A DNA stretch of 64,000 nt, from IMG/VR virus record IMGVR_UViG_3300044712_000732, positions 125,776 to 189,775 of that record; one strand, written 5' to 3'. This stretch comes from a virus. Both the position numbers and the translations under genes were made by a program. Below are positions 31,120 to 38,057 of this stretch, piece by piece; within the stretch, counting starts at the first letter, position 1, and each line of letters opens with the position of its first letter. A model generated the notes under the pieces. That model did not search any database and was not told the DNA's origin. It worked only from the letters and a program-made list of their open reading frames with translations.

Positions 31120-32439
31120 ATGACAAAAACAGAAGAATTTATCCAAAAAGCGAAACTTGTTCACGGGGATAAATATAATTATTCTAAAGTCGAATATATT
31201 AATAATCACACTAAAGTTACTATTATTTGTCCAAAGCATGGTGAATTTAAACAACAACCAGCAAATCATTTAAATAATATGGGTTGTCCAAAATGTGTTG
31301 GCAATATAAAATTAACAACAACAGATTTTTTATCAAAAGCAAAAGAAATTCATGGGGATAAATATGATTATTCAAAAGTTGAATATGTCGGAATATTTAA
31401 TCACGTGAAAATAATTTGTCCAATTCATGGGGAATTTGAACAAACACCAAGACAACATCTTAAAGGTCGTGGGTGTTATAAATGTGGTGGTACACAAAAA
31501 TATACACAAAATGAATATGTTATAAAAGCAAAGGAACTTCACGGGGATAAATATGATTATTCAAAAGTTAATTATTTGGGTGGTAGAAAAGATATAATTA
31601 TAATTTGTCCTAAACACGGTGAATTTAAACAAAAAGCTGGTCAACATATACATGGTTCAGGTTGTCCAAATTGTGCTGGATTAGGGTTTATATTTCTATC
31701 ATTTGAAGAAGCAAAAATTTTTGTTAAAAATCTTAATTTACAAACACAAAATGAATGGCAAAAATATTGTAAATCGGGAAATAAACCTGATAATATACCA
31801 ATAGCACCCGAAATTGTTTATAAAAAAGTTTGGATTAACTGGGGTGATTGGTTGGGTACATTTAAAATTTCAAATCAAAAAAAAGAATATTGGACATTTG
31901 AAGAAGCTAGAATATTTGTTAGAAATCTTAATTTAAAATCAATAACAGAATGGAAAAGATATTGTAAAAATGAAAATAAACCTAGCAATATTCCAAATGA
32001 TCCATACGGAACGTATAATAAATATGGTTGGTTAAATTGGGGTGATTTTTTAGGCTCATTTACATTAGCACCAAAAGATAGACAATATTTATCATTTGAA
32101 GAAGCAAGAAATTTTGTTAGAACACTTAATTTAAATTCAAAAGAAAAATGGGTAAATTATTGTAAATCGGGAAGTAAGCCTAACAATATTCCAAATGATC
32201 CATATAGTTATTATAAAGATGATGGTTGGATTGATATGGGGGATTGGTTGGGTACATTTACAATTGCCCCACGATATAAACAATTAAATTATCTTTCAGA
32301 AGAAGAATTCATACAATTTATTAAAGATACATTTCCAAATTTATATGGTGCTGAACTTCATAAAGCATATGAAGCTTGGTGGGATGAAAATAAACCAGAA
32401 TATTTACCAAAGGATGTTGCTAAATATTATAATAAATAA
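31120..32439 (+). CDS. repeat protein, paralog 1. It has 3 N-terminal zinc-ribbon-like modules (HGDKYDYSKV..IICPxHGEFxQ..HL.G.GCPxC), ~4 WGDWLG-type ~57-aa repeats (resembling homing-endonuclease-associated repeats) and the conserved C-terminal tail
   Basis: Manual alignment of internal repeats: FxxAR.FV..LNLKS..EW..YCKSGNKP.NIP..P...Y...GWI.WGDWLGT. Confidence 0.6.
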   Translation: MTKTEEFIQKAKLVHGDKYNYSKVEYINNHTKVTIICPKHGEFKQQPANHLNNMGCPKCVGNIKLTTTDFLSKAKEIHGDKYDYSKVEYVGIFNHVKIICPIHGEFEQTPRQHLKGRGCYKCGGTQKYTQNEYVIKAKELHGDKYDYSKVNYLGGRKDIIIICPKHGEFKQKAGQHIHGSGCPNCAGLGFIFLSFEEAKIFVKNLNLQTQNEWQKYCKSGNKPDNIPIAPEIVYKKVWINWGDWLGTFKISNQKKEYWTFEEARIFVRNLNLKSITEWKRYCKNENKPSNIPNDPYGTYNKYGWLNWGDFLGSFTLAPKDRQYLSFEEARNFVRTLNLNSKEKWVNYCKSGSKPNNIPNDPYSYYKDDGWIDMGDWLGTFTIAPRYKQLNYLSEEEFIQFIKDTFPNLYGAELHKAYEAWWDENKPEYLPKDVAKYYNK

Positions 32440-32442
32440 TTT

Positions 32443-34146
32443 ATGTCAAAAAAACGACCTTTTTTATCATTTGAAAATGCTAGATTTTTTTCACGATCTA
32501 TTAATTTAAAAAGTGGGAAAGAATGGAAAGAATTTTGCAAATCAGGTAATAAGCCTGATAATATACCAACAAATCCATATGAAGTATACAAAAAAGAATG
32601 GATTAGTATGGGTGATTGGTTAGGGACATTTTCGGTTCATACTAAAAATTTTTTATCATTTAATGAAGCAAGAATTTTTGCTAGATCAAATAATTTCAAA
32701 AATAGAGAAGATTGGAAATTATATTGTAAATCGGAAAATAAACCTAATAATATTCCGACAAATCCATATGAAGTATACAATAAAGAATGGATTAGTTGGG
32801 GGGATTGGCTAGGAACAAAAATAGGATTTGAAGGATTTTTATCATTTGAAGAAGCTAGAAATTATGTTAGAAATCTGAACTTAAAATCAAATAAAGAATG
32901 GTATAAATATTGTAAGTCAGGAGATAAGCCTGATAATATTCCATCTACACCAAATAAAAAATATAAAAATTGTGGTTGGACTAATTGGTATGATTGGTTT
33001 GGAACAAAAATTGAATTTGAAGGATTTTTATCATTTGAAGAAGCTAGAAATTATGTTAGAAACCTGAATATAAAATCATCAAATGATTGGGCTAAATATT
33101 GTAAATCTGGAAATAAACCTAATAATATTCCAAGTAATCCACGTGAAGTATATAAAAATGAATGGAATGATTGGGGTGATTGGTTAGGAACATTTACTAT
33201 ATCAACACAAAACTATGTGTATTTATCATTTGATGATGCAAGAAATTTTGCTAGAAATCTTAATCTAAAAACACAAACATATTGGAGGAAGTATTGTAAA
33301 TCGGGAAATAAACCTGATAATATACCAAGTGATCCATCCAAAGGTTATAAAGATAAAGGTTGGCTTAGTTGGGGTGATTGGTTAGGTACAAAAATTGGAT
33401 TTAATGGGTTTTTACCATTTGAAGATGCAAGAAATTTTGTTAGAAATCTTAATCTAAAAACCCAATATGAATGGAAAGTGTATCTTAATAGTGGAAACAA
33501 ACCTAACAATATTCCAAATAAACCACGGGATGTATATAAAGATTGGATTAGTATGGATGATTGGTTAGGTACTTTTGTGATATCAACCCATAAACAAAAA
33601 TTTTTATCATTTGATGAAGCAAGAATATTTGTTAAAAATCTTAGATTAATCGGTAAAGATGATTGGTATAATTATTGTAAAAGCGGAAACAAACCAACGG
33701 ATATTCCAACTACACCCAATACCGTTTATAGTGAATGGGTGGGTTGGGGTGATTGGTTAGGAACATATAATATAGCATCATTTGATAAAGAATTTTTATT
33801 GTTTAATGATGCGAGAAATATTATTAGAAACAAAAATTTTAAAAATCAAAATGAATGGTTTGAATATTGCAAATCGGGAAATAAGCCAAAAAACATTCCA
33901 AGTGATCCATCAAAAACCTATATAAATGATTGGATTGATTGGGGTGATTGGTTGGGTACATTTACTATTGCAACCCAAAATAAACAATTAAATTATCTTT
34001 CAGAAGAAGATTTCATACAATTTATTAAAGACACATTTCCAAATATTCCACCTGGAATTGAACTTCGCAAAGCATATGAAGCTTGGTGGGATGAAAATAA
34101 ACCTGATTATTTACCAAAGGATGTTGCAGGATACTACAATAAATAA
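32443..34146 (+). CDS. repeat protein, paralog 2 (10 WGDWLG-type repeats plus conserved C-terminal tail)
   Basis: Same repeat unit as paralog 1; C-terminal NYLSEEDFIQFIKDTFPN...AYEAWWDENKPDYLPKDVAGYYNK shared with paralog 1. Confidence 0.6.
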   Translation: MSKKRPFLSFENARFFSRSINLKSGKEWKEFCKSGNKPDNIPTNPYEVYKKEWISMGDWLGTFSVHTKNFLSFNEARIFARSNNFKNREDWKLYCKSENKPNNIPTNPYEVYNKEWISWGDWLGTKIGFEGFLSFEEARNYVRNLNLKSNKEWYKYCKSGDKPDNIPSTPNKKYKNCGWTNWYDWFGTKIEFEGFLSFEEARNYVRNLNIKSSNDWAKYCKSGNKPNNIPSNPREVYKNEWNDWGDWLGTFTISTQNYVYLSFDDARNFARNLNLKTQTYWRKYCKSGNKPDNIPSDPSKGYKDKGWLSWGDWLGTKIGFNGFLPFEDARNFVRNLNLKTQYEWKVYLNSGNKPNNIPNKPRDVYKDWISMDDWLGTFVISTHKQKFLSFDEARIFVKNLRLIGKDDWYNYCKSGNKPTDIPTTPNTVYSEWVGWGDWLGTYNIASFDKEFLLFNDARNIIRNKNFKNQNEWFEYCKSGNKPKNIPSDPSKTYINDWIDWGDWLGTFTIATQNKQLNYLSEEDFIQFIKDTFPNIPPGIELRKAYEAWWDENKPDYLPKDVAGYYNK

Positions 34147-37301: not shown

Positions 37302-37304
37302 AAA

Positions 37305-38057
37305 ATGAAAAAGGAATTCTTATTATTTGAAGAAGCTAGAAATTTTGTTAGAAATCTTAAATTAAAATCACAAAAAGAATGGAACAAATATATTAAATCA
37401 GGAAATAAACCTGATAATATTCCAAGTGATCCATATATTGCTTATAAAGATAATGGTTGGCTTAATTGGGGTGATTGGTTAGGTACATTTACTATAAAAA
37501 ATAAAGATTTTTTACCATTTGAAGAATCAAGAAATTTTGTTAGAACACTTAAATTTAACAATAGAAAAAAATGGAAATTGTATTGTAAATCTGGTAAACC
37601 TGATAATATTCCAAGTAATCCAAACGTTGTATATAAAGATAATGGTTGGTATAATTGGGGTGATTGGTTAGGAACATATACAATTGCAACATTTAATAAA
37701 GAATATTTATCATTTTATGATGCTAAAATATATGTTCATACATTAAATTTAAAAACCAAAATTGAATATGTTAAATATATTAAATCTGGTAATAAACCTG
37801 ATAATATTCCAAGTGATCCATATAAGGTTTATTACGATAAAGGTTGGATTAATTGGGGTGATTGGTTAGGTACATTTACTATTTCAAATCAAAATAAACA
37901 ATTATATTATTTATCAGAAGAAGAATTTCAACAATTTATTATTGCTAATTTTTCAGATATTCATCCAGATGATATGGATGAAGCTTATAGTAATTTTTGG
38001 AATAAAAATGAACCTATAAATTTACCAAAATATCCAAAAATATTTTATAATCAATAA
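37305..38057 (+). CDS. repeat protein, paralog 6 (4 repeats plus conserved tail)
   Basis: Same repeat unit and C-terminal tail. Confidence 0.6.
   Translation: MKKEFLLFEEARNFVRNLKLKSQKEWNKYIKSGNKPDNIPSDPYIAYKDNGWLNWGDWLGTFTIKNKDFLPFEESRNFVRTLKFNNRKKWKLYCKSGKPDNIPSNPNVVYKDNGWYNWGDWLGTYTIATFNKEYLSFYDAKIYVHTLNLKTKIEYVKYIKSGNKPDNIPSDPYKVYYDKGWINWGDWLGTFTISNQNKQLYYLSEEEFQQFIIANFSDIHPDDMDEAYSNFWNKNEPINLPKYPKIFYNQ

Follow-up and report, generated by a model that had tools for sequence, protein, structure and literature searches.

A six-gene array of INT_rpt and zinc-ribbon modules upstream of a viral helicase-methyltransferase: a probable detached targeting region

It has been reported that DUF723, DUF4379 and CapR are related zinc-finger DNA-binding modules, which are repeated in T5orf172 homing endonucleases, are reshuffled by recombination and have been co-opted in nuclease-free form in the satellite repressor CapR (Barth et al. 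2023, PMC10448857). For a second module, the 'Integrase repeat unit' INT_rpt (PF14882, formerly PHINT_rpt), function and fold relatives are unrecorded, although it is common: public data contain 8501 clusters at 50% identity, of which 2505 reach E < 1e-30, and a single protein can have as many as 17 units. No functional study of INT_rpt, PF14882 or PHINT_rpt was found in the searchable literature; one paper places the family among repeats without structure, and it has been used, or rather misused, as an integrase marker (PMC11502894). In this study, we analysed an array of six genes, here called g1 to g6, which are built from both kinds of module and lie upstream of a helicase-methyltransferase gene in a 64,000-nt stretch of viral DNA (the window; positions 125,776 to 189,775 of IMG/VR record IMGVR_UViG_3300044712_000732). 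We propose, with a probability of roughly 0.55, that g1-g6 represent the N-terminal targeting region of this enzyme in a detached and multiplied form, that is, nuclease-free binding proteins whose common tail is probably a docking piece.

The zinc ribbon of the array, HGDKYDYS...CPxH...GCPxC, is the same domain as the modules of Barth et al. (2023, PMC10448857), and it likewise occurs in tandem copies whose number has been changed by recombination. However, its partners in the window are INT_rpt units and never a nuclease, and in relatives it is found on a helicase-methyltransferase and not on a T5orf172, HNH or GIY-YIG enzyme. As with CapR of the Vibrio PLE satellites, there are stand-alone proteins made solely of binding modules of the homing endonuclease type, but CapR is a single repressor gene, whereas the window has six paralogs in front of an enzyme that bears the same modules in cis in most of its relatives. 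The repeat unit of the window belongs to PF14882, and its homologues are so annotated; the helicase link and the split unit described below are not part of the recorded knowledge of that family. As for the enzyme, it aligns over the whole catalytic domain of Rrp8/nucleomethylin (Methyltransf_8). The known Rrp8 members are eukaryotic nucleolar proteins, whereas the family of the window enzyme is fused to a superfamily 2 (SF2) helicase and occurs in phages and Bacteroidota, and binding modules of the homing endonuclease type on an Rrp8-like methyltransferase are a feature of this family and not of known Rrp8. No functional work on Methyltransf_8 or Rrp8 in phages was found in the literature. With respect to the searchable literature, three features appear to be new: both modules are associated with this enzyme family, the split falls inside a unit, and the array is multiplied six-fold.

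No zinc-ribbon or INT_rpt module was detected within the window enzyme itself; the modules are present in the six upstream genes instead. A preliminary description of this DNA, made from the sequence alone, had correctly placed a helicase-methyltransferase fusion downstream of the array but had read it as a mere neighbour, yet the same modules are fused N-terminally to 102 of its 120 best homologues (85%), and these fusions give the best indication of function. The enzyme-side search returned 366 homologues at E < 1e-10, and the module survey was made on the best 120: 93 have one to eight N-terminal zinc ribbons, six have both module types and three have INT_rpt only, and the 18 module-free proteins are mostly 615-903 aa in length. 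From the side of the repeat, a search with the unit profile gave 75 viral loci, among which five distinct proteins of 1178-1450 aa carry five to nine INT_rpt units ahead of the enzyme. In the fused forms L006, L007, L010, L022 and L023 the order is INT_rpt units, ResIII/SNF2, Helicase_C and Methyltransf_8, with an additional zinc ribbon at the start of L022 and a degenerate one in L007, and over 820 aa the C-terminal enzyme part of L006 and the window protein share 35% identity (E = 2e-145). Short forms are scattered over a neighbour-joining tree of the enzyme core, and sister branches differ in module type (six zinc ribbons in P0123 versus seven INT_rpt units in P0124); the two module types can therefore replace each other at the N-terminus within one enzyme family.

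The closest solved relative of the methyltransferase part is human nucleomethylin/RRP8 (2ZFU, E = 1.2e-21), which we take to belong to an rRNA m1A enzyme family, and the alignment with the C-terminal 180 aa includes the S-adenosylmethionine motif VADFGCG. The N-domain of the helicase matches ResIII/SNF2 and the PHROG 'DNA helicase' families; for its C-domain the next solved matches are DEAD-box RNA helicases, which are weak and limited to the generic C-domain. PADLOC gave only generic helicase C-domain matches for the window enzyme, and a DarB-like PHROG match is likewise weak and confined to the helicase C-domain. The family is present in large phages and in Bacteroidota genomes. On a 2.1-Mb bacterial contig (L083:8007-14524), a fused 1234-aa zinc-ribbon form lies in a small island which also holds a ParA-like ATPase and a RhuM-family gene, and therefore the enzyme family is also found on chromosomal, possibly mobile, elements.

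In the array, a profile made from the units finds 26 full WGDWLG units of about 56 aa (3, 8, 5, 3, 4 and 3 in g1 to g6), and a 189-198-nt period was recovered independently with TRF and a repeat finder. The figure of more than 30 copies given previously was thus too high; 32 is reached only if the five tails and the extra 15-aa unit fragment at the C-terminal end of g4 are added. The unit is INT_rpt, for which the gathering threshold is 26.5 bits and the scores are 83.7 bits for g2, 54.3 for g3, 40.4 for g5, 32.7 for g4 and 26.8 for g6; g1, with 23.0 bits, falls under the cut-off, and its three units are recognized at E ~1e-30 by the window's own unit profile. Profile searches, which had been suggested as a check, thus lead to a family that is uncharacterised and lacks a match in the PDB by sequence or by fold. 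The array had also been regarded as a lineage-specific expansion, but the repeat itself is not lineage-specific, as PF14882 is widespread, and only the six-gene layout is unusual. No Phage_integrase catalytic domain was found in g1-g6 or in any homologue scanned, NCBIfam gave no match for the six proteins, and for g1 and the unit profile the sequence matches in the PDB were at chance level only. Weak matches of the unit to Exonuc_X-T_C, GIDA_C_1st, PASTA, NUMOD1 and other families cover about 20 residues of the first helix and were not taken as homology. The unit is modelled as a four-helix fold, and although no PDB entry matches it, the best matches of this model among viral predicted structures are SF2 helicase domains of giant viruses, for example of Klosneuvirus (TM score 0.83, 43% identity).

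Elsewhere, INT_rpt is combined with GIY-YIG (L063, L074), LAGLIDADG (L043, L065) and Vsr/DUF559-like (P0050) nucleases, and it is C-terminal on ResIII helicases (L002, L011, L031, L042, L060) and on Mrr-nuclease helicases (L029, L036, L050, L075). In the Mrr-helicase proteins, the helicase part corresponds to positions 1-645 of a model for Type IIG restriction-methylases, and INT_rpt therefore occupies the place of the methylase and target-recognition region. An SF2 helicase is fused to the repeat in 17 of the 75 viral loci and lies within 1.5 kb in a further three by a BLAST criterion, and of three INT_rpt-only proteins on long contigs two adjoin helicase genes or fragments. In one of the fused loci (L006:9935-11570), eight INT_rpt units with a 66-aa period are nearly identical and differ at only a few positions. 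Unlike the diverged units of the window, they recall repeat arrays in which a few residues determine specificity.

The zinc ribbon is the treble-clef module DUF723 (PF05265)/DUF4379 (PF14311). For g1 the two models give 39.3 and 29.8 bits, against cut-offs of 20.9 and 24.5, respectively; the zinc ribbons of g3 and g5 are recognized via PHROGs 4605, 681 and 559, and the CPxH...CxxC signature with its four zinc ligands is kept in all five modules of the array (three in g1, one each in g3 and g5). For the CapR Pfam model, faint precomputed matches exist in relatives and none at E < 0.01 in the window proteins. The absence of a nuclease noted earlier holds, since scans with Pfam, NCBIfam and PHROG detected no nuclease domain in g1-g6, and no trace of one is seen in any frame of the region. 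The proposed likeness to homing endonucleases is also borne out, both by the fusions of INT_rpt to GIY-YIG, LAGLIDADG and Vsr-like nucleases and by the zinc ribbons, whose matches to the PHROG families 'endonuclease' and 'HNH endonuclease' are confined to a non-catalytic middle part (profile positions 239-436 of 576 and 124-334 of 607). With isoelectric points of 9.0-9.5, the nucleic-acid binding suggested before for the six proteins seems plausible; the helicase-methyltransferase has an isoelectric point of 5.7. A common tail of about 50 aa ends g1, g2, g3, g5 and g6, in agreement with the preliminary description. We found that it is a divergent INT_rpt unit, which aligns to unit positions 2-47 (hhalign probability 82.6%, E = 9.6e-6) and stops short of the WGDWLG helix.

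This truncation recurs in two of the other lineages in which the enzyme and the modules are encoded by separate genes. On the same strand, L078 has an eight-unit protein, a seven-zinc-ribbon protein and then the enzyme, L090 a seven-unit protein, a four-unit protein and then the enzyme, and L077 an ortholog of g5 followed by the enzyme. In L013, a module-only gene and the enzyme form an adjacent convergent pair, and in L082 the upstream gene encodes a different repeat protein, with a putative divergent zinc ribbon, recognized by eye, that gives no profile match. The upstream proteins of L078 and L090 end, in four of four cases, at unit position 47 or 48, one or two residues before the stop, and the helicases of these two loci open with unit positions 48-60 (YFKSWGDMLGY, containing SWGDMLG, and SWLSWADFFG, containing SWADFFG). 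The gene boundary therefore cuts a unit before its last and most conserved helix, and the cut unit is retained by every duplicated upstream gene in L078 and L090. The simplest reading of this arrangement is that the cut unit and the orphan helix may rejoin in trans, which would dock the binding protein onto the enzyme. The N-terminus of the window enzyme, MKKVPNNEWWYVI, aligns at the right place and retains at most a vestige (NNEWWYVI) of the last helix.

A further locus, L079, was considered as a clean split and rejected, because the gene is of the fused kind and a frameshift interrupts its last zinc ribbon. In this locus (L079:6947-10517; also in L080 and L081), a 329-aa zinc-ribbon open reading frame (ORF) and an 838-aa helicase-methyltransferase ORF form one frameshifted reading unit, and the helicase frame, read upstream, yields the second zinc knuckle and the linker. 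The same layout is seen in contigs from several samples and reflects either a real mutation or recoding.

The array itself is real. All six genes are present on the plus strand as intact ORFs with exactly the limits given previously, core residues are invariant in all 26 units, and no further copy of any array module was found elsewhere in the 64 kb. An assembly collapse of a single gene, which had been named as something that would refute the earlier account, is ruled out, and so is a single broken gene: the units have diverged, the tail-stop-start junctions are conserved, and parts of the region recur on independent contigs. The units have a mean identity of 58% at the amino-acid and 70% at the nucleotide level (maximum 84% nucleotide identity) and share no long identical stretches able to mislead an assembler; because they average only 70% DNA identity, the array is not an assembly artefact. 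In addition, g6 together with the upstream end and stop codon of g5 was found again on an independent 927-bp contig (L001), and the junction of g5 tail, stop and helicase was found again in L077. An identical g6 is also present in metagenome JGI 3300042876. With 26 units in six genes the array is the largest among the loci sampled, the next largest being L002 (16 units in four ORFs), L009 (15 in three) and L006 (12 in two).

The enzyme of L077 is 92.5% identical to that of the window at the DNA level, and the nucleotide identity of its g5 ortholog is 91% in the zinc ribbon, 92% and 87% in units and 92% in the tail. Between its fourth unit and its tail, this ortholog has gained a unit fragment and two further units relative to g5, and L077 has no g6; unit and gene numbers therefore change on a short time scale, in keeping with the recombination between repeats that had been suspected. 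The ratio of non-synonymous to synonymous substitution (dN/dS) between g5 and its L077 ortholog is 0.15, equal to the value of the enzyme, which indicates purifying selection on the array genes. The median dN/dS between paralogous units is 0.57, with synonymous distances that are unreliable at 25% G+C, and this would be consistent with diversification. Downstream of the helicase-methyltransferase, where the window has HNH and DenV genes, L077, the closest relative, has Cas6 and Cas5 genes (L077:4256-6206), suggesting a phage-borne CRISPR-Cas locus at a variable spot.

According to the model that we favour, g1-g6 would be basic, modular nucleic-acid-binding proteins. DNA is most likely their ligand, because INT_rpt occurs with DNA enzymes (GIY-YIG, LAGLIDADG, Vsr-like, ResIII and Mrr). 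INT_rpt and zinc-ribbon modules would be the substrate-holding parts of homing endonucleases, restriction-type helicases and related enzymes, and the modules that form one polypeptide with the helicase-methyltransferase in most relatives would here, and in a few other lineages, be supplied by separate genes just upstream. We infer that each paralog brings the enzyme to a different set of sites, and that the tail is the probable docking piece, which would complete the unit fold in trans, because the missing helix sits on the helicase N-terminus in two other split lineages. In function, the paralogs would be comparable to the alternative specificity subunits of a Type I restriction-modification enzyme: as proposed here, and as in Type I or Type ISP/IIG systems, a separate or swappable recognition part directs a helicase motor and a methyltransferase, and in Mrr-helicase proteins of the L036 type INT_rpt stands at the methylase/target-recognition place, as in Type ISP/IIG. 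In contrast to Type I, there is no sequence or fold relation to HsdS and the window enzyme lacks a nuclease; furthermore, its methyltransferase is Rrp8-like and not of the DNA N6-adenine type, and the comparison with Type I, ISP and IIG enzymes is one of analogy and not of membership. A more far-reaching version, which we offer tentatively and hold to be clearly less probable than the model just outlined, is that of a re-targetable, phage-encoded machine for nucleic-acid modification, in which interchangeable subunits (unit positions 1-47) plug into the last helix carried by the enzyme, recombination quickly reshuffles specificity by altering the number and order of the modules in each subunit, and INT_rpt is a new, structurally unmatched DNA-recognition repeat that guides helicases in phages, bacteria and giant viruses.

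Several observations weigh against the model that we favour. The tail in the window has diverged from the INT_rpt unit, a profile search for the unit's last helix at the N-terminus of the window helicase gave no match, and g4 is without any tail; because the tail has diverged and the helicase N-terminus has at most a vestige of the helix, docking is less well supported for the window than for L078 and L090. Five short-form contexts were examined, and one of these, L079, is the frameshifted fused gene. By the BLAST criterion, 54 of the 75 viral INT_rpt loci are without a helicase, and the modules therefore also work in other settings. The fold of INT_rpt is without a match in the PDB. Lastly, RNA is a possible substrate, because the methyltransferase is closest to an rRNA m1A enzyme and the C-domain of the helicase has RNA helicases as its nearest solved relatives.

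The last of these points leads to an alternative that keeps the link to the enzyme and takes RNA of the host or the phage (rRNA or tRNA) as the ligand, which the helicase and the Rrp8-like domain would remodel and methylate as part of the takeover of translation typical of huge phages. The RRP8 kinship, the DEAD-box matches and a large tRNA array in the genome are in its favour. We nevertheless judge it improbable, as both module types are otherwise found on DNA enzymes (GIY-YIG, LAGLIDADG, HNH, Vsr-like, Mrr and ResIII/SNF2-type helicases), the N-domain of the helicase matches ResIII/SNF2 and 'DNA helicase' families, and the RNA-helicase matches are weak and concern the generic C-domain. A little more probable, although still unlikely in our view, is that g1-g6 are autonomous sequence-specific DNA-binding regulators, descended like CapR from the binding domains of homing endonucleases, which act on promoters of the phage, its host or a competitor without the enzyme. 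Such a nuclease-free repressor built from the same zinc-finger module is on record (PMC10448857), in viral loci the majority of INT_rpt-only proteins lack a neighbouring helicase, g1-g3 have a promoter-like site of their own, g4 has no tail, and the array opens a transcription block beside a divergent promoter region. However, regulators of this kind would leave unexplained why the same two module types are carried by the enzyme in 102 of 120 homologues, why module-only genes lie directly 5' of short forms in independent lineages, and why the split falls within a unit whose missing helix is on the enzyme.

Two further explanations seem to us very improbable, each to about the same degree. One holds that g1-g6 are functionless, decaying remnants of homing endonucleases that lost the nuclease and were kept by chance or by repeat-driven amplification. 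The modules are indeed typical of homing endonucleases, an HNH gene lies 3 kb downstream of the array, a unit fragment ends g4 and a recombination scar is seen in L077; decay is at odds, however, with six intact ORFs, core residues that are invariant in 26 units, a dN/dS of 0.15 for g5, conserved tails and the lack of any nuclease trace in every frame of the region. The other, an anti-defence role that had been put forward together with nucleic-acid binding, would make g1-g6 inhibitors or decoys by which restriction proteins of the host, or its other defence proteins, are titrated. In its favour, some helicase-methyltransferase fusions of phages counteract restriction, as is the case for DarB of phage P1, and the array changes quickly between relatives. 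The DarB-like match of the window enzyme is the weak C-domain match mentioned above; none of the six proteins has a PADLOC match, they are not DNA or other nucleic-acid mimics because they are basic, and INT_rpt is tied to defence solely as a domain in restriction-like helicases.

The results presented here link INT_rpt and the homing endonuclease zinc ribbon to helicases of SF2 and especially to one large helicase/Rrp8-like methyltransferase family of Bacteroidota phages and genomes, and therefore provide a testable role for both families. The phage of the window may be regarded as a natural dissection, in which the binding arm is separate from the enzyme and exists in six versions, and therefore specificity, docking and the substrate of the enzyme can be tested with recombinant proteins. 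If true, docking through a split unit would be a compact case of fold completion used for swapping specificity subunits, and the modules could be of interest as programmable DNA binders.

The coordinates of the array, the enzyme gene and the associated promoter-like sites are listed in Table 1.

Table 1. Genes, modules and promoter-like sites of the array region (positions in the window)
Feature	Position	Strand	Description
Promoter-like motif TATCTTTGCAAA	31089..31100	+	20 nt 5' of g1; just outside the start of the array
g1	31120-32439	+	439 aa; 3 zinc-ribbon modules, 3 INT_rpt units, tail
g1 zinc-ribbon modules	31126-31305, 31315-31494, 31504-31683	+	
g1 tail	32287-32436	+	
g2	32443-34146	+	567 aa; 8 INT_rpt units, tail 33994-34143; PF14882 83.7 bits
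g3	34150-35454	+	434 aa; zinc-ribbon module 34165-34344, 5 INT_rpt units, tail 35302-35451
Internal promoter-like motif TATATTTGCACA	35509..35520	+	inside the 90-nt gap before g4
g4	35545-36177	+	210 aa; 3 INT_rpt units and 15-aa unit fragment; no tail; ATGA overlap with g5
g5	36174-37301	+	375 aa; 2 units, zinc ribbon 36561-36740, 2 units, tail 37146-37298
g6	37305-38057	+	250 aa; 3 INT_rpt units, tail 37905-38054
Promoter-like motif TATATTTG	38066..38077	+	between g6 and the helicase gene (gap of 31 nt); also conserved in L077
SF2 helicase (ResIII + Helicase_C) with Rrp8-like Methyltransf_8	38089..40728	+	short form, without N-terminal modules

The promoter-like sites at 31089 and 35509 belong to an extended motif, TATNTTTGCANA, which occurs six times versus 1.04 times expected, a number reached in none of 100 shuffles. 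Every one of these sites lies 5' of a start codon in the same orientation, at a distance of 20-60 nt for the sites checked. The motif includes TAnnTTTG, which we take to be the Bacteroidota-type promoter element; this short pattern by itself is not enriched, and a generic sigma-70 and terminator scan was uninformative in sequence of 25% G+C. Two promoters of this type had been placed inside the array; only the site at 35509 is truly internal, and that at 31089 precedes g1. The neighbours on the right side are as previously described, namely the helicase-methyltransferase fusion, an HNH endonuclease and endonuclease V/DenV. The array starts a rightward transcription block and adjoins a strand switch and a change in the sign of the GC skew at about 30.2 kb. 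Directly to its left, the AT-rich strand switch at 30100-30310 shows divergent transcription, with a promoter-like site TATCTTTGCACA at 30243; it may be an origin of replication or contain early promoters. Between this region and the array, immediately before the latter, lies a gene for a PIN_4-domain protein (30312-31049) with a promoter-like site of its own, for which related loci show no link to the array.

The window, with about 25% G+C, is part of a 501-kb contig, and no near-identical DNA was found among deposited phages. A fragment of its family B DNA polymerase is 48% identical to 635-735-kb 'uncultured phage' records, which are presumably huge phages with predicted Bacteroidota hosts, and is more distantly related to a Prevotella Lak phage and a Flavobacterium phage. 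In the polymerase ORF (23983-25353, 456 aa), the family B match is limited to the C-terminal part of the Pfam profile; the polymerase of the window may be split into separate genes, and related huge phages match in one or two pieces. The 16 tRNA genes of the window are located at 60.8-63.8 kb, and in this array (60836-63755) several genes are unusually long, with 85-91 nt (Met, Glu, Asp and Cys), those for Asp, Asn, Glu, Met and Tyr are duplicated, and one anticodon is undetermined. Finally, two short tandem repeats lie within other ORFs of the window: a perfect 12-nt repeat in 8.6 copies at 18358-18460, inside the ORF 17696-19219, and 30-33-nt repeats in up to seven copies at 27132-27417, inside the ORF 27090-27863.

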